Positions 4,505-30,497 of a stretch of DNA of 38,675 nt are shown piece after piece. This DNA is from a virus. Taxonomy: Duplodnaviria > Heunggongvirae > Uroviricota > Caudoviricetes. Location of the stretch: the IMG/VR virus record IMGVR_UViG_2563366911_000004. One strand, written 5' to 3'. Position numbers and translations under genes: made by a program. Under the pieces are notes generated by a model that worked only from the letters and a program-made list of their open reading frames with translations, ran no database searches and was not told the DNA's origin. Position 1 is the first letter of the stretch. Each line of letters begins with the position of its first letter.

Positions 4505-7500
4505 TACCGATATGCTCCACTTAACCGACCACCATCACGGGCCTGCTGTTGCATAAAGTCCGCTGCCGCTTTTTTCCCAAGGTCATAAACCACCTTCAGG
4601 GCAGCCGGACCTATCTGCCCGTTCGTGCCATCGTTATTGATCTCGATGTTGTACTGCGGGGCAAACATCGCCATACCTGAACCACCAATATCCGCCACAA
4701 CCCCCAGCTTACCGTCAGCACCACGACGCAGTGGCAGAATGGCTTCAGGTCCAGCTTCCCCCATCACACCCGCGCCTTTTGCAAAAGCAAAAAACGTCGG
4801 ACGGTTAACCACCGTGCCACTGTAACGACTCAAATCAGCAGACTGATAAATCCCCCCATTGGCATTCAGGGAAAGGCTGCTGAGATCAAATCCCAGTACA
4901 CTGCCAATCCCTTTTATCGATTTCATCATGGTTGCCTGCGCCAGGATTTTCGCCATATCTGACAGCACCGAAGAGGTGAAGGATTTGAAGTTGAGTTTGC
5001 CGGTAGTGACAAAAGTTGCCAGGCCATTTCCCATGTTGCTGAAGGCTGACGAGAACACCTGTTCTGCTGTTCCTGCCGTATTGTCTGCATCCACGGTAAA
5101 ATCCTGAAATGCACGCAGGACTCCGTTTTTCCAGTTACCCTGCACAACTTCAAGCTGTTGCCAGTAACGGCGATTCTCATTCAGTTGTCGGTTCAGGCTC
5201 TCCGTCAGCGCCTGCTCGGCCTTTCTGTAGTCATCCGTGTTATATGTCCCTTTCTGCTCACTATCCCGCCTCAACTGCTCCAGCTGTTGCTGGTATTTCT
5301 GGCGAAGACTCAGTTGTACCTGATATCGCTGCCGCTGCTGATCACCCATACCCACCGTGGCGATATCCAGGTCATGTTGCTGACGCTGAGCGAGCTCTTC
5401 TTCAGCCAGTTGACTGGTCAGCTGAATTGTTTTTTTCTTCAGATCGTTGAGTGCCGTCTGTTTCTGAAGCTCCTGCTGTTTTACATCCAGCAGCGTCAGT
5501 GCCTGAATCAGTTCATCTTTACGGGCCAGCACACTCTTTTCATCTGCCGTCAGTTTTTTCCCGTCCAGATCGCTGATGCGCTGCTGCAGAGCCAGAAGCT
5601 GTTTATGCGCTTCTGTCATCTTTTCAGTGGCAATGCCTGCTGACTGTCTTGCAGCAGCAATCTGTCCTTCCACCTGTGCCTGTTGCTGACTGTACTGCAG
5701 CAATAACCGGGTGGCCTCATCATTACGGGTTTCGCGTGTTTTTTTCTTACCGGATGCCAGGGCTTTCTCGTAACGTTCATTTTCACGTTGTATCGCTGCA
5801 TCCCTGACAGCCTGATCGGCGTACTGCATGGAATTAATACGCGCAATTTCACGCTGATGTCGTGCTGCTTCCGTTTCATTCATCCGGTTCAGTGCAGCAT
5901 TTTCAGCATTACGTCGTTTCTGTTGCTCCTGATAATTCCGCTCTGCCTGCTCTTTTGCATCCTGCAAATCCTTCTGGCGTTTTTTCTCCTGAAGATCGTT
6001 AAGACGCTGCTGATCGTATTCAACCTGAGAAGATGATGCCGTCCAGGGGAGTCTTTTCGCCCGCGACACTTTCTCCTGTAAAGCGGCAATCTGTTCATCC
6101 AGCGAGTCTTCACGACCAATATTCATGGCCGCATCCCAGAAACGACTCCACAAATCAGACAGATACTTCAGCGTACTGCCAAGCGCATTGAGGTTATTAT
6201 CAATATCCGCAGTACGCCGACCGGTTTCCTCTGCCAGTGCAGACATGGCTATCCGTGCAGCATCACTGGACCGTCCCTGATCCCCAAGGACACGTATCTG
6301 CTCAAGCTGAGTGGCAGTAAGAAAATGCAGCTCATTGTCCAGAGCCTTCGCGGCATTTACAGGATCATCCTTCAGCCGCTTAAACTGATTTATGGTATCG
6401 CTGACCGACTGGCCAACCGATCGCTCCATCTGTGCGGCAGCTCTCGCCACCATACCGATATCGTTTCCACGAAATGCACCACTCCCCACCACCTGAGCCA
6501 GCACACCGGCTGCAGCATGTTGCGTGATACCATTCCCGGAAATAGCACGACTGAGCGTCCACAGCTGCCCGGCAGTGACTCCGGCATAATGCCCCGTCAG
6601 CGACAACTGGCGGTTAAATTCTTCCCCCTCCTTCTGACCGTCATACCAGGCTTTACCCAGACCATAGACGGACGCGGCAATACCGCCAATAACCCCGCCA
6701 AGCATCATGCCTTTCGGTGACATCAGAGTGTCTATCCATCCGGCACGGTTAGCCAGCGTTATCCCGGATCCCCTCAGCGCCCCTAAATTGCCGCGGGCCA
6801 GTTCACCTATCAGAACGCCTATCTCCTGGCGGGCCGCTGCACTTTTCAGACCCAGCGAATGCGTGGCTTTTCCTGCCTGCTCCATTTTGCGGATATACAC
6901 TTCTGCAGCACTGCTTACCCCCAGCTGGGCAGCCTTAGCACGAAGCAACTCAGAAGAAGAAAGATTCTGGCGGGTTGCCTGCTCTTTAAGCTGACGGATA
7001 AACGCCACTTTCTGTCGGGTAGCCTCTTCCTCAGCCTGCGTAAGAACACGGGTTTTCGCCGTAACCTCAGAAATCAGCGCCAGATAATCCTGCTGACCAA
7101 TCCCGCCACTGTTTCTGGCCTGTCGGATCTGCTGCTGAATACGCTGTAATTCCTGCAGCCCCGCACTGGCCTGTTTCACACTGTCAATCTGACGATAAAA
7201 CGCAGCAGCTGCTTTATCCTGAGCCTCCGCCAGAGCCATGGCCTGCGCCTGTTCCTCGCGCATTTTCTGGCTCAGTGCCTCCATACGCTGGCGGGTTTTC
7301 TCCACCTCGCGGGCCATGCGTTCATGAGCCTGTGCGTTCTTCTCCACCGTCTGCGCATGGACGGATGCGGCTGTTGCAGCCGAAGACGCCGCCTGCGTTG
7401 TCTGCCGGGCGGCCTGAGTCTGACGCTCCATAAAACGCTGCATACGGGCAGAAGACCGTTCTGCATCGCTGGCTGCACCATTCAGAAGGTTTTTGATACG

Positions 7501-7599
7501 GGGAATTTCATTTTTAAACTCTGCCGCATCAATCCCCAAATCAATGACCAGGTTGGCTATCTGGTCCATAACGCACACCTCCGGAAATACCTTCCCCAA
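4504..7599 (-). CDS. Tail tape measure protein (lambda H equivalent), 1031 aa
   Basis: Long coiled-coil-rich ORF (Q/A/E/R/K-rich heptad-like stretches), Gly-rich hydrophobic segment (GMMLGGVIGGIAASVYGLG), located between the G/T chaperone pair and M. Confidence 0.85.
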   Translation of the reverse strand: MGKVFPEVCVMDQIANLVIDLGIDAAEFKNEIPRIKNLLNGAASDAERSSARMQRFMERQTQAARQTTQAASSAATAASVHAQTVEKNAQAHERMAREVEKTRQRMEALSQKMREEQAQAMALAEAQDKAAAAFYRQIDSVKQASAGLQELQRIQQQIRQARNSGGIGQQDYLALISEVTAKTRVLTQAEEEATRQKVAFIRQLKEQATRQNLSSSELLRAKAAQLGVSSAAEVYIRKMEQAGKATHSLGLKSAAARQEIGVLIGELARGNLGALRGSGITLANRAGWIDTLMSPKGMMLGGVIGGIAASVYGLGKAWYDGQKEGEEFNRQLSLTGHYAGVTAGQLWTLSRAISGNGITQHAAAGVLAQVVGSGAFRGNDIGMVARAAAQMERSVGQSVSDTINQFKRLKDDPVNAAKALDNELHFLTATQLEQIRVLGDQGRSSDAARIAMSALAEETGRRTADIDNNLNALGSTLKYLSDLWSRFWDAAMNIGREDSLDEQIAALQEKVSRAKRLPWTASSSQVEYDQQRLNDLQEKKRQKDLQDAKEQAERNYQEQQKRRNAENAALNRMNETEAARHQREIARINSMQYADQAVRDAAIQRENERYEKALASGKKKTRETRNDEATRLLLQYSQQQAQVEGQIAAARQSAGIATEKMTEAHKQLLALQQRISDLDGKKLTADEKSVLARKDELIQALTLLDVKQQELQKQTALNDLKKKTIQLTSQLAEEELAQRQQHDLDIATVGMGDQQRQRYQVQLSLRQKYQQQLEQLRRDSEQKGTYNTDDYRKAEQALTESLNRQLNENRRYWQQLEVVQGNWKNGVLRAFQDFTVDADNTAGTAEQVFSSAFSNMGNGLATFVTTGKLNFKSFTSSVLSDMAKILAQATMMKSIKGIGSVLGFDLSSLSLNANGGIYQSADLSRYSGTVVNRPTFFAFAKGAGVMGEAGPEAILPLRRGADGKLGVVADIGGSGMAMFAPQYNIEINNDGTNGQIGPAALKVVYDLGKKAAADFMQQQARDGGRLSGAYR

Positions 7600-7870
7600 G
7601 ATGCATCAGTTCTTCGTCCGTTCGCTCCGGTATCCCGTTCTCTTCCGGTAAAAGGCTGAAATCAGCCACCGCAGCATCACTGCTGCCGGACACCATTCTC
7701 ACGATCAATGCCTTCAGCGAGGCAAACTGCGCATCCATCCACACATCACTGAAGCTCTGCATCCGGAAATAATCGCCCCACTCACCAAGCTCAGTGGCCG
7801 ACATTTCCGACAGCATCCGCCGCCAGTCTGCCCGCCGGAACTCCCGGGCAAGCCGCATGACAAACTGCAT
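7541..7870 (-). CDS. T: Tail assembly chaperone T segment, probably expressed only as G-T fusion via -1 frameshift
   Basis: -1 frame relative to G is open from 7903 through 7541; no SD in front of the ATG at 7870; classic G/GT arrangement upstream of the tape measure gene; 3' end overlaps H start by 59 nt. Confidence 0.7.
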   Translation of the reverse strand: MQFVMRLAREFRRADWRRMLSEMSATELGEWGDYFRMQSFSDVWMDAQFASLKALIVRMVSGSSDAAVADFSLLPEENGIPERTDEELMHLGEGISGGVRYGPDSQPGH

Positions 7871-7878
7871 TTCCCGCG

Positions 7879-8307
7879 TCAGGACTTTTCCGGCGTCAGC
7901 ACCTCATGCTCCAAATCCCCGGCATTATCAATGGCCCCCATACCGCTCAGCGACAGAACCATCTCCGCCCCCGCACCCAGGGCATCATACGACCATGTTG
8001 TAATAACGGATGCGTAAAGCGTCTCAACATCCTGAGACTGTTCCGCATTCCACAGTGAGCGGGAAACCAGCCAGGCATTGATATCCATCCCCATCCGCAG
8101 AAAAGCAATCTGTCGTTCAGCCTCCGGCAGTTCTCCCTCCCCGGCATCAAACTTTGCCGTTCGCTGCTGAACAAACATCAGATATTCAATTCTCTGCAGC
8201 CCGGACAGCTCACTGAGCACCACGGACTGTTTTTCATAATTAAACGTGTCCTGTTTCAGAAACATCATGTTCTCCACCTGCAAAAAAGCCCCGAATAACC
8301 GGGGCAA
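7879..8307 (-). CDS. G: Tail assembly chaperone G
   Basis: MFLKQDTFNYEKQSVVLSELSGLQRIEYL... resembles lambda G N-terminus (MFLK...TLSELSALQRIEHL). Probable true start ATG at 8265 (GGTGGAGA SD), giving ~128 aa. Confidence 0.8.
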   Translation of the reverse strand: MPRLFGAFLQVENMMFLKQDTFNYEKQSVVLSELSGLQRIEYLMFVQQRTAKFDAGEGELPEAERQIAFLRMGMDINAWLVSRSLWNAEQSQDVETLYASVITTWSYDALGAGAEMVLSLSGMGAIDNAGDLEHEVLTPEKS

Positions 8308-8325
8308 ATGATGAGTATCGTCCTG

Positions 8326-9144
8326 TTAACCTGCTGCGCTGACAGTCACCGCAGCCACAGCCACAAAATTCCCGTCAGCGGTCATGCCCACAATGCTGAC
8401 ACTGCCCTGCTTCACGCCTTTTACCGTGGCCACAAGTCCGTTCAGGGTAACCGTGGCAGTCTGTGGATCTGACGAATGCACACTGATCGCTTTGTCACTG
8501 GCTCCGTCAGGTTTTACTGTAAAGGTCAGCGTGGTGGTTGCTCCCACTTTTACACTGGCAGATGCCGGTGATACTGTCAGCCCGGTAACGCTCACGGTTT
8601 CAGTGCCTTCCTCTGCCAGATACGGACGCCCCACACCGCTGATTTTCACAGTGCGGGTCATCACGTCTTTTGAGGCAATGGTTTTACCCAGTGAGCTCAG
8701 CCAGCCACGGAAAACATCAACAGTGCCGTTGGGATATTTGATACGAAACGCGCAGACTTCACCGGAGTCGAACAACTGAACCAGTTTTTTCTGCCCGCTG
8801 TCACCCGGACGCCAGGCCAGCGTCGCCGAAGTATCACCAACGGATTTCTGCCCCTGGGTTGTCGTTTTCCAGTCTGCATCTTCATCATCGAGATAAGTGT
8901 CATCTTCTGCATCAGCGGTCATTTCGCCAGGTTGCAGATCCTTCACCATCGCAAGACGCAGCCAGTCAGTGTCCGATAAAGGGTTCGCAAACGCATCGCC
9001 CTTGCCGGTATACATCCAGAACGTCGTTCCCGCACCTTTCGTTTTTGCCAGTGGATTTGGTGTGGTCATTACCACCTCCTTAATTCGTGTACGTGATCTG
9101 GTACGTGATTTCCGCCATCGCCCAGGTGGCCATCTCATTATCAC
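8326..9144 (-). CDS. V: Major tail protein V with C-terminal Ig-like (Big_2-type) domain
   Basis: ...KGAGTTFWMYTGKGDAFANPLSDTDWLRLAMVKDLQPGEMTADAEDDTYLDDEDADWKTTTQGQKSVGDTSATLAW...NGTVDVFRGW... matches lambda V pattern. Probable true start ATG at 9069 preceded by TAAGGAGGTGGTA, giving ~247 aa. Confidence 0.9.
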   Translation of the reverse strand: MIMRWPPGRWRKSRTRSRTRIKEVVMTTPNPLAKTKGAGTTFWMYTGKGDAFANPLSDTDWLRLAMVKDLQPGEMTADAEDDTYLDDEDADWKTTTQGQKSVGDTSATLAWRPGDSGQKKLVQLFDSGEVCAFRIKYPNGTVDVFRGWLSSLGKTIASKDVMTRTVKISGVGRPYLAEEGTETVSVTGLTVSPASASVKVGATTTLTFTVKPDGASDKAISVHSSDPQTATVTLNGLVATVKGVKQGSVSIVGMTADGNFVAVAAVTVSAAG

Positions 9145-26107: not shown

Positions 26108-26137
26108 AAAATAAAAACAAAAACCCGCCGAAGCGGG
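26108..26137 (-). terminator. Intrinsic terminator downstream of hokD
   Basis: Hairpin CCCGCCGAAGCGGG (26124-26137) followed on the minus strand by TTTTTGTTTTTATTTT. Confidence 0.55.
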
Positions 26138-26207
26138 TTAAGTGCGGGTGCGTTGAGGATGCCTGCCACATCAGAGGTGGCGAGGGATTTCTCCCTCGCC
26201 GGGTCTC

Positions 26208-26363
26208 TTACTCCTCAGGTTCGTAAGCTGTGAAGACAGCGACCTCCGTCTGGCCGGTTCGGATTCGTACCTCGCAGAGGTCTTTCCTCGTTACCAGTGC
26301 CGTCACTATGACGGTTAAACAGATGACGATCAGGGCGATTAACATCGCCTTTTGCTGCTTCAT
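26208..26363 (-). CDS. hokD: Hok-family type I toxin (HokD/RelF-like), 51 aa
   Basis: MKQQKAMLIALIVICLTVIVTALVTRKDLCEVRIRTGQTEVAVFTAYEPEE from ATG 26363; the ORF-track entry extends upstream in frame to 26420. Confidence 0.85.
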   Translation of the reverse strand: MKQQKAMLIALIVICLTVIVTALVTRKDLCEVRIRTGQTEVAVFTAYEPEE

Positions 26364-27164
26364 AGCCTGCTTCTCCTTGCCTTTCGGCACGTAAGAGGCT
26401 AACCTACATATGTCTAGCATGAAATTGGCCTCAGATTAATGTTAAGCGTCTTGCAGGACGCGTAATGTTAACTGGGGCTTTTCTCTATCTGCCGTTGGTG
26501 TTCATGCCTGAGGCAGATAGCCTCAAGCACCCGCAGCAATTCTACTTAACTCCCGTCACCTCGCCAATATAAAATCAATCAGAAAGGCGATCCGTAAGAA
26601 CAACAGCAAGACAATAAATTGCCATTACAGCCGCAATAGCTAGCGCACATTTGAGAACCAGCACGACAACCTCCTGTATTGGACGTACACCAGTTCTGAT
26701 AAATATGAGGCTGTCTCATCATTGATTCAATATAACTATTGGGTATAGTTTCTGTGATTTTGTTTTGTAGAAATGGAACACAACAACCAGTTACCACCAG
26801 CACTTCTTTAAATACGCCAAGTCCGACGCAAGCTAACCTTCTAGTCCGCTTTGAGTGAGAAGCAGACATTTACTTAACCGGATAGCAAGAGACTTCATAC
26901 TACAGCTCATACATCATGGTTGATCCCGAAGTTTTCAGCAATGGAAATTGCCCACATGATCGTACCGTAACCACATTAGAAGCAGGTTCACTTTGTGAAT
27001 TTTGATTGTGTCACCCTATCAGTTTTGAATTTTTATAAAAAATATTCGCAAATTTGTGAATTATGAGAGGCATACGAGCATGGACAACCAATGTTACTTT
27101 CATACACAATGAAGCAACATGATAAAAATACACTGACTTTAGTAAGTAAATTTAGGAGATTGCG

Positions 27165-28499
27165 ATGTTTAGCTTAATCATGGCCGGAGAACCGGACGTT
27201 TTTGACCGCTGGCCGTGTATGGACCCTGAGCTTAAAGAAGGCAAGGAAAGCTTCTCGATGTCCCGCATGCTGGAAGGCACCCCAAGCAATATTTACAGAA
27301 AATTAACACCAATAAGACCCGATACCTTAAGAGTACTCGCCAAGCTACCGGTGTTGTTCATGACCGAAATTTATACAAAAGATGATGAATATGATACAAA
27401 CAAGTACATCAGGATCAGGCTTGGGGAAATAAGAAATTTACGTAAAGATGGTGGCGATATTTTATTTTCTTTCAAGATTAATCATGATTTTGGAGAAATA
27501 ACGAATCCCCAAACGACATTATATAAAGAAACCCTAGGACTAGGATCTTTCGGGTTAAGTCGTACACATTGGGCAGTAAAAAATAAGGATTTGAATATTG
27601 TTCTGGAATTACTTGGTTTAAACAAAAAAAATAGCCATCTGAAAGGTACAATCAAATTAAAAAAACAAACATACCCAGTAGTCGAGAATATTATAGATTA
27701 TCTTAATTTCATTAAGAAAAACTTTCGTGATGGTCTCATTACCTTCTATCGTGGACACTCTAAAAGCTCATATGAGCTTGTCCCCTCTCTTTACAGAAAA
27801 AATCAAAACGGGACGTACAGGCATCTTGCTTCAGAATCTGATTTAGTACGTGAAATACTCAGCGCAAGACCAAATGAATTTAAGGAGGATAAATTTACGA
27901 TTGATAAACTTGTCCGCATGCAGCATTATGGCTTGCCTACAAGACTCTTAGACATTACATCTAACCCACTGATAGCATTATATTTTGCTTGCTGTTCGAA
28001 CCCCGATGAAAACGGACAGGTGATTGCGTTTTCAACAAACAGAAAGAAAATTAAATATTTCGACTCAGACACAGTGAGCTGTATAGCAAACTTATCACTT
28101 TTATCTTACGAAGAGTTGGAAAAATTGTCTTCCATTGATGCCAGAAAAGGTAGTATGGAGTTACCTGAACTCACTGATAAACTTGCAGACCTTATACAGA
28201 ATGAAAAATCATATTTCAGAAACAGAATAATCCCTGATGACTTAAAGAAAGTTGTTTTCCTTAAGGCAAAAATAAATAATGAACGCATACAATCTCAGGC
28301 AGGAGCTTTTCTTCTGTTCGGACTTGATCCCATTTTACCGGAAACAGATGCTGAGTTTCCTCTTAACAGAGTGGAGATAGCGAACAAAAATAAAATTCTG
28401 GAAGAGCTGGCACAGCTTAATATATCCGAAAGCACTGTATATCCCAGCATGGAGAAAACGGCAGCAGAAATTACAAAAAAGTTTTTATCGGTATCATAA
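27165..28499 (+). CDS. FRG-domain protein (444 aa), AT-rich accessory gene; function unknown, candidate defence/exclusion gene
   Basis: Strong SD (TAGGAGA) 7 nt before ATG. Central region carries the FRG-domain signature as I recall it: ...LITFYRGHSKSSYELVPSLYRKN...LVRMQHYGLPTRLLDITSNPLIALYFAC.... Composition markedly more AT-rich than neighbouring phage genes. Confidence 0.75.
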   Translation: MFSLIMAGEPDVFDRWPCMDPELKEGKESFSMSRMLEGTPSNIYRKLTPIRPDTLRVLAKLPVLFMTEIYTKDDEYDTNKYIRIRLGEIRNLRKDGGDILFSFKINHDFGEITNPQTTLYKETLGLGSFGLSRTHWAVKNKDLNIVLELLGLNKKNSHLKGTIKLKKQTYPVVENIIDYLNFIKKNFRDGLITFYRGHSKSSYELVPSLYRKNQNGTYRHLASESDLVREILSARPNEFKEDKFTIDKLVRMQHYGLPTRLLDITSNPLIALYFACCSNPDENGQVIAFSTNRKKIKYFDSDTVSCIANLSLLSYEELEKLSSIDARKGSMELPELTDKLADLIQNEKSYFRNRIIPDDLKKVVFLKAKINNERIQSQAGAFLLFGLDPILPETDAEFPLNRVEIANKNKILEELAQLNISESTVYPSMEKTAAEITKKFLSVS

Positions 28500-28528
28500 A
28501 GGGATAAACTAAAGGAAACGAAAACTAA

Positions 28529-28537
28529 GACTGCGCA
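28529..28537. repeat. IS10 target-site duplication, left copy (GACTGCGCA)
   Basis: Identical 9-mer directly flanks both IS10 termini. Confidence 0.85.
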
Positions 28538-29866
28538 CTGAGAGATCCCCTCATAATTTCCCCAAAACGTAACCATGTGTGAATAGATTTTGAGTAAGCA
28601 GGGTTGCAGCCACGAGTGAGTCTTCCCTTGTTATTGTGTAGCCAGAATGCCGCAAAACTTCCATGCCTAAGCGAACTGTTGAGAGTACGTTTCGATTTCT
28701 GACTGTGTTAGCCTGGAAGTGCTTGTCCCAACCTTGTTTCTGAGCATGAACGCCCGCAAGCCAACATGTTAGTTGAAGCATCAGGGCGATTAGCAGCATG
28801 ATATCAAAACGCTCTGAGCTGCTCGTTCGGCTATGGCGTAGGCCTAGTCCGTAGGCAGGACTTTTCAAGTCTCGGAAGGTTTCTTCAATCTGCATTCGCT
28901 TCGAATAGATATTAACAAGTTGTTTGGGTGTTCGAATTTCAACAGGTAAGTTAGTTGCTAGAATCCATGGCTCCTTTGCCGACGCTGAGTAGATTTTAGG
29001 TGACGGGTGGTGACAATGAGTCCGTGTCGAGCGCTGATTTTTTCGGCCTTTAGAGCGAGATTTATACAATAGAATTTGGCATGAGATTGGATTGCTTTTA
29101 GTCAGCCTCTTATAGCCTAAAGTCTTTGAGTGACTAGATGACATATCATGTAAGTTGCTGATAGGTTTCCAGTTTTCCGCTCCTAGGTCTGCATATTGTA
29201 CTTTTCCTCTTACTCGACTTAACCAGTACCAACCCAGCTTCTCAACGGATTTATACCATGGCACTTTAAAGCCAGCATCACTGACAATGAGCGGTGTGGT
29301 GTTACTCGGTAGAATGCTCGCAAGGTCGGCTAGAAATTGGTCATGAGCTTTCTTTGAACATTGCTCTGAAAGCGGGAACGCTTTCTCATAAAGAGTAACA
29401 GAACGACCGTGTAGTGCGACTGAAGCTCGCAATACCATAAGTCGTTTTTGCTCACGAATATCAGACCAGTCAACAAGTACAATGGGCATCGTATTGCCCG
29501 AACAGATAAAGCTAGCATGCCAACGGTATACAGCGAGTCGCTCTTTGTGGAGGTGACGATTACCTAACAATCGGTCGATTCGTTTGATGTTATGTTTTGT
29601 TCTCGCTTTGGTTGGCAGGTTACGGCCAAGTTCGGTAAGAGTGAGAGTTTTACAGTCAAGTAATGCGTGGCAAGCCAACGTTAAGCTGTTGAGTCGTTTT
29701 AAGTGTAATTCGGGGCAGAATTGGTAAAGAGAGTCGTGTAAAATATCGAGTTCGCACATCTTGTTGTCTGATTATTGATTTTTCGCGAAACCATTTGATC
29801 ATATGACAAGATGTGTATCCACCTTAACTTAATGATTTTTACCAAAATCATTAGGGGATTCATCAG
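28538..29866 (-). mobile_element. IS10 (IS4 family), complete 1329-bp element
   Basis: Termini CTGAGAGATCCCCTCATAATTTCCCC (inside end, 28538) and CTGATGAATCCCCTAATGATTTTGGTAAAAATCATTAAG (outside end, reverse complement ending 29866); length exactly 1329 bp; encodes the IS10 transposase. Confidence 0.95.
28551..29759 (-). CDS. IS10 transposase (402 aa)
   Basis: MCELDILHDSLYQFCPELHLKRLNSLTLACHALLDCKTLTLTELGRNLPTKARTKHNIKRIDRLLGNRHLHKERLAVYRWHASF... recognised as Tn10/IS10 transposase; start is 107 nt inside the outside end. Confidence 0.95.
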   Translation of the reverse strand: MCELDILHDSLYQFCPELHLKRLNSLTLACHALLDCKTLTLTELGRNLPTKARTKHNIKRIDRLLGNRHLHKERLAVYRWHASFICSGNTMPIVLVDWSDIREQKRLMVLRASVALHGRSVTLYEKAFPLSEQCSKKAHDQFLADLASILPSNTTPLIVSDAGFKVPWYKSVEKLGWYWLSRVRGKVQYADLGAENWKPISNLHDMSSSHSKTLGYKRLTKSNPISCQILLYKSRSKGRKNQRSTRTHCHHPSPKIYSASAKEPWILATNLPVEIRTPKQLVNIYSKRMQIEETFRDLKSPAYGLGLRHSRTSSSERFDIMLLIALMLQLTCWLAGVHAQKQGWDKHFQANTVRNRNVLSTVRLGMEVLRHSGYTITREDSLVAATLLTQNLFTHGYVLGKL

Positions 29867-29875
29867 GACTGCGCA
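29867..29875. repeat. IS10 target-site duplication, right copy (GACTGCGCA)
   Basis: Identical to 28529-28537. Confidence 0.85.
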
Positions 29876-30074
29876 GTCTTCAGGTGGAAGTACTCATCGG
29901 GAACGGTTTCAGGGGCAAAAACTGGAAGCTCCAATGGCCTTGAGCTGCTCCCTATAAATTAACATATCTCAATGTTATCAATGTCTGCTTTTGGCACAAA
30001 GCGGACAACCACGCTAGCTCTACCCTGTGCCACAAAATGTCAATTTGCATCTGAACTAATGCACTTTAATCTCG

Positions 30075-30497
30075 TCACTTCAATAAATACCGGACATCCC
30101 CCTGATAAAACGACAATATGCGCTGCATAACTTCGCTTTTACGACACTCAGTACAAATCATATTATGACGCCTGTCGTAACGACGTATTTCTCCGTCAGG
30201 TAATGACCAGATAAGGTCCGGATCAACCGCAGATGGTTCCTTCAGCTTTACCCTTGAGAGCTTTTTACGGGCATTTTGCCAGTCCTTACGCGCCTGTTCA
30301 GACGGGAATAACCCGTAACCAGAGTTGTATACATCGCCGCTGGCAACCAGCTCTCTTGCGAGAACGCTCATCAGATATCTTGTCGCACCTGTCTTGACTT
30401 CCAGTTGCCGTAACGTCTCACGCCCACTCCGGCGTACGAGTTCAACAACCTGCCCTTTAATTTTTTCCCGCTCTTCTTGTGTAAAAACTTTTGCCAC
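30075..30497 (-). CDS. Hypothetical protein of the replication module (lambda P/ren position), possible HTH
   Basis: 140 aa ORF immediately downstream of the O-like gene; no recognisable helicase-loader motifs. Confidence 0.5.
   Translation of the reverse strand: MAKVFTQEEREKIKGQVVELVRRSGRETLRQLEVKTGATRYLMSVLARELVASGDVYNSGYGLFPSEQARKDWQNARKKLSRVKLKEPSAVDPDLIWSLPDGEIRRYDRRHNMICTECRKSEVMQRILSFYQGDVRYLLK

Follow-up and report, generated by a model that had tools for sequence, protein, structure and literature searches.

An FRG-domain gene in the variable slot of a Qin-like prophage as a candidate single-protein anti-phage sensor-effector

Introduction

In this report, we examine a single gene in a 38,675-nucleotide sequence of a tailed phage (Caudoviricetes; IMG/VR record IMGVR_UViG_2563366911_000004), called the window below, which carries a Qin-like lambdoid prophage. 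The gene lies at 27165-28499 on the plus strand and encodes a protein of 444 amino acids that joins an N-terminal domain of predicted PUA-like fold to a C-terminal FRG domain. We will argue that a defence role of the gene is probable, and that its N-domain is moderately likely to be a sensor. Consumption of nicotinamide adenine dinucleotide (NAD+) as the output is possible, with chances just under even. The model as a whole, namely a self-contained, lysogen-expressed anti-phage cassette in which one protein is both sensor and effector of abortive infection, is put forward tentatively.

The gene and its two domains are located as follows.

27165-28499, plus strand: FRG gene, an open reading frame of 444 amino acids, stop codon included
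27165-27614, plus strand: N-terminal domain (amino acids 1-150), predicted PUA-like beta-barrel, putative ligand or nucleic-acid sensor
27660-28484, plus strand: C-terminal catalytic-type domain (amino acids 166-440)

Results and Discussion

The C-terminal domain matches the Pfam FRG family (PF08867) with E=2.8e-22 and 79.9 bits against a cut-off of 25, and the core of the match covers amino acids 193-282 (27741-28010). This bears out the FRG signature that an initial annotation, made from the sequence alone, had reported, and the motifs quoted there are present. The conserved motifs of the domain are F-Y-R196-G-H, MQH254YGLPTR260LLD263ITSNP, DSDTVSC, E347-K and N372-x-R374-x3-Q378-x-G. The F194-Y195-R196-G197 element is thus complete, and in an alignment of 36 homologues both R196 and G197 are invariant; in the same alignment, invariant polar residues are most densely packed in the FRG region. 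In PADLOC-DB, 14 models of the candidate single-gene system PDC-S15 match the protein, the best one with E=6.7e-99 over amino acids 166-440. The full-length protein also matches PHROG 4962, a family of unknown function, and a search of NCBIfam with the 444 amino acids gave no match.

Aravind and colleagues have placed 'Frg' in the ADP-ribosyltransferase (ART) superfamily and see in it a possible antiviral effector, perhaps with NADase function (PMC9503650); that paper credits the Frg clade to Burroughs and Aravind 2020. The candidate status of FRG-type proteins in defence (PADLOC) and the ART/NADase idea (published) are therefore already known. The AlphaFold2 model of the protein has a predicted local distance difference test score (pLDDT) of 84 and a predicted template modelling score (pTM) of 0.85, and its C-terminal domain gives weak matches to the ART fold in structure comparison. 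In the predicted secondary structure, R196 of the F-Y-R196-G motif stands at the end of a strand, which fits the arginine of the R-S-E triad, and T265-S266 of L-L-D-I-T-S-N follows the strand 261-265 and precedes a helix, which fits the S-T-S landmark. The residue that precedes strand 381-385 is the invariant glutamine Q378 and not a glutamate, where the placement was made by motif order and not by superposition. Scanned permissively against Pfam, the 36 full-length members show no ART, EVE, YTH or ASCH family and give just isolated chance matches, and a profile search of PDB sequences with the whole protein returned nothing usable. We treat ART membership of the C-terminal domain as plausible, and its active site as atypical.

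The N-terminal part, ca 190 residues of which the initial annotation could not assign, indeed has no Pfam model in the 2025 Pfam-A searched; it can now be described as a putative PUA-like domain, which is also found joined to immune effectors other than FRG. Its first 160 residues are conserved from residue 1 onwards among the 36 homologues. Eight residues are invariant (R34, E37, T39, E68, R133, H135, W136 and K139), and the motifs of the domain are S-R-x-L-E-x-T, L-P-x-L-F-x-x-E and R-T-H-W-A-V-K. The only pocket-type aromatics among them are W136 and H135. The modelled domain is a pseudo-barrel that matches almost exclusively PUA-like readers, the best structural neighbours including THYN1-5mC, McrB-N-m5C, EVE-HNH VcaM4I and, weakly, PD-T4-3. 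The PUA-like assignment applies at the level of the predicted fold only. At the sequence level, none of 21 N-domains matches Pfam EVE, YTH, ASCH or PUA at E<=10, the hits to other families being isolated and due to chance, a profile search against PDB sequences gave nothing meaningful, and a Foldseek search with the domain gave nothing significant. Neither FRG nor ADP-ribosylation is mentioned in the survey of EVE-like domains by Bell et al.

We now consider the distribution of the N-domain outside FRG proteins. Its profile was searched against 1.84 billion representative proteins, clustered at 50% identity, and the family comprises at least 817 clusters at E<=1e-3, with 183 at E<=1e-10. An FRG region is found by local hmmsearch in 24 of the 148 best N-domain proteins. 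From the other proteins, 50 of the longer ones (at least 270 amino acids) were scanned with Pfam, and their partners are the CAP12/Pycsar-type TIR domain (13/40 in one sample), TIR_2, TIR and SEFIR, and further Abi_C, a guanylate-cyclase domain, Schlafen AlbA_2 (protein P0206) and a Ser/Thr protein kinase. Two architectures are composite, one with AbiJ_NTD3, N-domain and TIR (P0194) and the other with EAD2, N-domain, Ser/Thr kinase and FGE-sulfatase (P0223). The PADLOC models that these partners match, in the effector parts, are those of PDC-S35, PD-T4-6 (kinase region) and ThsB-like type. Across these architectures an arginine, a glutamate, a threonine, a further glutamate and R-T-H-W-x-x-K remain invariant. 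Since one constant domain is thus combined with interchangeable known effectors, we regard it as a likely sensing or regulatory module, and FRG stands at the place that TIR NADases take in the sister architectures. We found no earlier description of the PUA-like fold of this domain, of its family-wide signature or of its repeated pairing with TIR, kinase, Schlafen, Abi_C and cyclase domains, and these are the new elements here.

The roles of the two domains could also be reversed. The N-domain would then be the enzyme, similar to ASCH-like proteins such as the N4-acetylcytidine (ac4C) amidohydrolase YqfB and the ASCH ribonucleases, and the FRG region would serve regulation or binding. We consider this very unlikely, because it is hard to reconcile with a constant module that is joined to known catalytic effectors (TIR, kinase), and because the densest invariant polar block lies in the FRG region.

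Another scenario that has to be weighed is that the protein attacks the phage nucleic acid directly. It would then be a modification-dependent, 'restriction-like' enzyme, whose N-domain attaches to modified DNA or RNA of the phage, where the FRG/ART domain ADP-ribosylates this nucleic acid. Replication or translation would thereby be blocked, with no depletion of NAD+. The structural neighbours of the N-domain, which include readers of modified DNA and RNA and reader modules of type IV enzymes, speak for it. The ART superfamily includes nucleic-acid ADP-ribosyltransferases, which is a further point in its favour, and DarT acts on DNA. DarT is cited as an enzyme of this class in PMC13069673. 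However, a nuclease partner is present in none of the 148 sampled N-domain proteins, and the partners that do occur fit signalling or abortive effectors better. There is moreover no sequence or hidden Markov model (HMM) link of FRG proteins to DarT or Tpt1, and no de-ADP-ribosylating antitoxin (DarG or a macrodomain protein) beside the gene. Direct targeting is accordingly judged to be unlikely.

Next, we discuss the genomic setting. As the initial annotation had observed, the FRG gene is a plus-strand gene with a strong Shine-Dalgarno sequence (AGGAG at 27154-27158, with the ATG 6 nt further downstream) that stands alone among minus-strand genes; it is the sole plus-strand gene between hokD/sok and the DUF977 gene. 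It is also more AT-rich than the backbone, as stated there, with a GC content of 37.2% in the coding sequence and of 35.6% in the 295 bp that precede it, compared to 48.6% for the whole window. The borders of the slot are the following.

26208-26363, minus strand: hokD toxin gene (open reading frame), left border of the slot
26208-26532, minus strand: hokD with the hok/sok regulatory RNA region (Rfam sok, 114 bits), left border of the slot
30075-30497, minus strand: DUF977 gene, last gene of the replication module (Pfam DUF977, E=1.7e-27), right border of the slot

A near-identical prophage, adjoining rspB, is present in E. coli 2014C-4587. The order annotated there is cspB, ydfT (Q), ydfU, rem, hokD, the FRG-domain protein on the plus strand and DUF977, followed by a replication protein, ydaT, cro, cI, dicB, exonuclease, xis and int.

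Among related phages, the interval from hok to DUF977/LygF is variable and holds the following cargo.

K-12 Qin: relE, relB, ydfV, flxA, ydfW and ydfX
Evi: GNAT acetyltransferase and a regulator of helix-turn-helix (HTH)-cupin type
HannyBb: QueH and a methyltransferase
Tritos (prophage of LF82): FRG gene, 98% identity
mEp460_ev081 (LR597641.1; 5208-6557 of locus L017): 449-amino-acid 'hypothetical' protein, same orientation, full-length match to PD-T7-1 (E=4e-157)

The initial annotation had named different cargo (relBE, flxA and others) for this interval in K-12 Qin, which proves to be correct, and comparison of presence and absence among related phages shows a slot that varies and that, in mEp460_ev081, is occupied by the PD-T7-1 homologue. 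We had also considered this 449-amino-acid protein as a diverged FRG protein; the idea was rejected on the basis of a BLASTP E-value of 0.27 and the PD-T7-1 match.

Beyond the slot, the FRG protein has thousands of homologues. Those of full length span 41-98% identity, with relatives at 41-50% in Enterobacterales, Aeromonas and rhizobia, and full-length copies occur in the sequenced temperate phages Tritos, P2_2H1 and PhiR11_1. Two E. coli homologues, at 45% and 59% identity, lie between gpQ (portal) and gpA of P2-like prophages, one of them adjoining a type VI retron reverse transcriptase and an HTH protein. The gpA-gpQ interval is the cos-proximal P2 hotspot of Rousset et al. (PMC9122126), the cargo of which consists mostly of anti-phage systems; Table S5 of the same paper contains the arrangement 'hypothetical + FRG + RVT_1'. 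A Klebsiella homologue occupies the gap from gpU to the tail-fibre genes in a P2-like prophage; for an 88%-identical Klebsiella allele, the setting is a colicin/microcin island with a PD-(D/E)xK-like DUF6602 protein as neighbour. A Sinorhizobium homologue shares an integrase island with genes for a PDC-S35 TIR protein, a methyltransferase and a radical-SAM protein, and the Aeromonas copy is solitary, beside the thi operon. With the P2 hotspot, the P2-like tail slot, the integrase island and the colicin island as their settings, the homologues are not housekeeping genes. Across the six contexts examined there is no conserved partner gene, and no conserved antitoxin is adjacent, the neighbours being different in every context. 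Because no neighbour is conserved, we take the system to be a single gene.

Directly upstream of the Klebsiella P2-like homologue, on the same strand, there is a gene for a protein of 439-465 amino acids (6510-7829 of locus L003; 6432-7829 of loci L004-L006). This protein has no Pfam or PADLOC match and may be another cargo gene or a clade-specific partner.

Expression can be assessed for the 98%-identical copy in LF82, on the basis of the RNA sequencing data in the supplementary tables of PMC9928086. The values are log2(fpkm+5), with fpkm denoting fragments per kilobase per million; two replicates are separated by a slash, LB is lysogeny broth, and B1 and B6 are condition labels of the source.

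FRG copy, LF82_282/TRITO_38: LB stationary 5.2/4.7; B1 6.9/7.3; B6 9.27/9.23; macrophages (MB1, MB6) 6.7-6.9
Convergent DUF977 neighbour: LB stationary 3.9/3.2; B1 3.1/3.0; B6 3.9/4.1; macrophages (MB1, MB6) 4.1-4.8
CI repressor: LB stationary 8.2/7.7; B1 9.6/9.9; B6 9.7/9.9; macrophages (MB1, MB6) 9.7-11.7

In these tables the lytic neighbours of the copy are silent in the lysogen, and since the copy is expressed while the DUF977 neighbour stays low, it is transcribed on its own. Its level is higher in macrophages than in LB, with a log2 fold change (log2FC) of 1.94.

This dependence on the growth condition would also suit a prophage gene that has nothing to do with immunity, for example a host-modifying ART-like enzyme or an addiction-type toxin of benefit to the prophage or to the physiology of the lysogen, in a slot that merely tolerates cargo. 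The same slot does hold non-defence cargo elsewhere (the GNAT acetyltransferase with its regulator in Evi; QueH with the methyltransferase in HannyBb), and it adjoins the hok/sok addiction module. On the other hand, the protein matches PDC-S15, a candidate family derived from defence islands, fusions of its N-domain to canonical immune effectors have arisen many times over, the P2 cos-proximal hotspot in which homologues reside holds mostly anti-phage cargo, and a conserved antitoxin partner is lacking. We therefore find a non-immune role distinctly unlikely, and favour defence. The proposal of the initial annotation that this is a candidate defence or superinfection-exclusion gene gains from the PDC-S15 match, the PD-T7-1 homologue in the same slot, the mobile and defence-related contexts and the transcription in a lysogen. 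It has to be amended in that the gene was not an unflagged one.

The mechanism that we propose for this defence is as follows. The PUA-like N-domain would bind a cue that arises in the course of infection and is a nucleotide or a nucleic acid. Such a cue is suggested by the invariant pocket-type residues, which comprise three basic and two acidic ones and the His-Trp pair. Candidates are a modified base of the phage DNA or RNA and a modified mononucleotide set free by DNA degradation. Binding of the ligand would free the FRG domain from autoinhibition, probably via oligomerisation. The FRG domain, as a presumed divergent member of the ART fold, would then use up NAD+, or else, with lower probability, transfer ADP-ribose to a macromolecule; either activity would halt phage replication in the infected cell. 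The most specific version of this proposal, in which the N-domain represents a large PUA-like immune-sensor family of at least 817 clusters and FRG is an ART-fold, NAD+-consuming effector that lacks the canonical glutamate, is doubtful as a whole.

A number of observations weigh against the proposed model. The presence of Q378 at the position of the catalytic glutamate means that the active site is either atypical or mis-assigned. The N-domain has W136 as its single invariant aromatic residue and does not have the aromatic cage of YTH, EVE and PUA-Cal (see below), and the absence of nuclease partners among the 148 sampled proteins sets it apart from classical modification readers. The gene is carried by only 28 of 5426 complete E. 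coli genomes. According to the tables of PMC9928086, the LF82 copy in LB stationary phase is only ca 3-fold over the prophage background; it is thus below the 5-fold cut-off that the authors used for morons, and for that reason missing from their moron list. Finally, experiments on FRG proteins or on PDC-S15 were not found in the literature searched, where PDC-S15 is mentioned in two papers, both of them genome surveys. The statement of the initial annotation that FRG lacks an experimentally established function hence stands, with the assignments made so far being computational. Its label 'uncharacterised' for the gene is correct with regard to experiment, but not entirely so otherwise, given the PADLOC candidate and the computational classification of Frg as an ART/NADase effector.

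Cassette boundaries and neighbouring features

The following features concern the extent of the mobile cassette and its surroundings.

26844-27164, plus strand: AT-rich upstream part of the mobile cassette, ca 89-91% identical at the DNA level to what precedes the Klebsiella allele
27165-27299, plus strand: first 45 codons, with anomalously high GC content at third codon positions (GC3), from composition
28529-29875, minus strand: IS10 with its 9-bp duplications, from the ends, length, duplication and RNA-OUT
29953-30007, plus strand: short segment on the downstream side, also present in Klebsiella, where a stretch with 91% identity follows the gene directly

On the left side, the backbone homology of Evi and mEp460_ev081 ends at ca 26863-26867, and the segment common with the Klebsiella allele begins at 26844. 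Both values agree with the left boundary of 26870 given in the initial annotation. The upstream 320 bp accompany the gene into the unrelated colicin-island context in Klebsiella, and this region (26844-27164) probably carries the gene's own promoter, the LF82 copy being transcribed independently of its neighbours. A promoter scan shows a weak sigma-70-like site at 27081-27110. The AT-rich upstream region also contains two copies of TTTGTGAATT, 61 bp apart (26992-27001 and 27053-27062), both of which are kept in the Klebsiella cassette and may be operator or promoter elements. On the right side, the segment 29953-30007 is probably the 3' end of the cassette.

The IS10 element itself covers 28538-29866 (1329 bp) and is flanked by the 9-bp target duplication GACTGCGCA at 28529-28537 and 29867-29875. 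Its transposase gene is at 28551-29759 on the minus strand, and Rfam locates RNA-OUT at 29752-29821. The initial annotation had described the FRG gene as immediately flanked by IS10; the element is indeed present, inserted 38 bp past the FRG stop codon, but on the 3' side only. All 28 E. coli genomes with the FRG gene have it without IS10, and the FRG-IS10 junction is found in none of the 5426 complete genomes, so the insertion is recent and private and not part of the system. In the minus-strand early operon, IS10 lies between the DUF977/replication genes and the downstream genes hokD, rem, ydfU and Q. Because of this position, it may exert a polar effect on the delayed-early transcripts that run towards Q, and induction of the prophage could suffer severely. 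The RNA-OUT/pOUT end of the element faces the DUF977 gene in antisense.

The 5' end of the coding sequence was also inspected. As reported by the initial annotation, the first ca 45 codons are GC-rich (GC 0.50, GC3 0.62), with GC3 of 0.20-0.42 in later blocks. The conclusion drawn there, namely a chimeric 5' end, does not hold, because even members with only 41% identity have a conserved N-terminus; the first 45 residues align across the family, and we therefore rejected a fusion to coding sequence of foreign origin. The same patch is present in the 88%-identical Klebsiella allele (GC3 0.60), whereas the enterobacterial and Aeromonas homologues at 40-59% identity have GC3 of 0.31-0.42 in the first codons, even at identical amino acids. 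On this compositional comparison, it is an old synonymous-site patch within one subclade, and it could be due to gene conversion from a GC-richer relative or to selection on the 5' end of the mRNA.

Some further features were noted on the hokD side of the slot. Between the sok region and the cassette boundary there is an unannotated, Cys-rich open reading frame of 96 amino acids (26579-26869, minus strand), the DNA of which is conserved in the phages Evi and mEp460_ev081, with no annotated gene in the records examined. Just downstream of hokD, at 26118-26199 on the minus strand, Rfam gives a weak, sub-threshold match to the Hfq-binding small RNA isrK (25.7 bits compared to a gathering score of 50, E=0.015). 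In Tritos, an extra two-gene insert (TRITO_41 and TRITO_40; 6863-8619 of locus L002) is located between hokD and ydfU, and its ImmA/IrrE protein matches RmrA (Rosmer) in PADLOC with E=5.5e-102. In LF82, the two genes rank with the most strongly expressed ones of Tritos. The insert is missing from the window, where rem sits instead.

Significance

In the literature searched, no function of the widespread FRG domain has been shown by experiment, and the proposed mechanism, if true, would be its first functional assignment. The analysis recasts an 'unknown N-terminus plus FRG' as a two-module hypothesis with named residues. As the gene is an E. coli prophage copy with a probable promoter of its own and no need for a partner gene, it is directly testable by cloning. 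The ligand of the N-domain would moreover explain how a set of candidate single-gene systems, including TIR proteins of the PDC-S35 type, sense infection. The interval between hok and the replication genes of Qin-like prophages, in turn, joins the list of prophage defence slots.

Comparison with known systems

One close counterpart is the candidate system PDC-S15, which likewise is a single gene without a conserved partner and whose models match the FRG region. The difference is that PDC-S15 has candidate status only, and that its models span the FRG region and not the PUA-like N-domain. With the Frg clade of the ART superfamily, the protein shares the Pfam domain and the prediction of an NADase-type effector of prokaryotic immunity, as described in PMC9503650.

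The nearest precedent for the proposed mechanism is PUA-Cal-HAD, an abortive-infection defence of E. coli ECOR28 (bioRxiv 10.64898/2026.01.15.699771). According to that work, its PUA-like domain binds m6-dAMP from the degraded host chromosome and activates the effector by filament formation, and the same PUA-like family is also fused to TIR, DrHyd, HEPN, HNH and McrB. Both systems thus combine an N-terminal PUA-like domain, a sensor in PUA-Cal-HAD and putatively one here, with an interchangeable effector. In the WxKxxExxP motif of PUA-Cal, the lysine contacts phosphate (10.64898/2026.01.15.699771), and R34-x-x-E37 of the present protein matches the KxxE spacing, which is suggestive only. The sequence families are however unrelated, and the VWWGWWxKxxExxP and TPxYY motifs are missing from our alignments. 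Furthermore, the effector here is FRG, with no match to metallophosphatase/Calcineurin-CE or HAD and no partner gene.

Type IV enzymes (EVE-HNH VcaM4I, McrB-N, PD-T4-3) resemble the FRG protein in the predicted fold of the N-domain and in the layout of a reader combined with a catalytic domain (cf. PMC7897488). They differ in that neither the FRG protein nor the adjacent genes contain a nuclease domain, that the N-domain has no EVE, YTH or SRA HMM membership, and that its partners are signalling or abortive effectors.

The last system to be compared is PD-T7-1, a single-gene defence reportedly named in the 2022 functional selection of Vassallo et al. The two proteins are unrelated in sequence, as the BLASTP comparison given above shows, but they are similar in size (449 and 444 amino acids), and in mEp460_ev081 the PD-T7-1 homologue takes the very same hok-DUF977/LygF slot in the same orientation.

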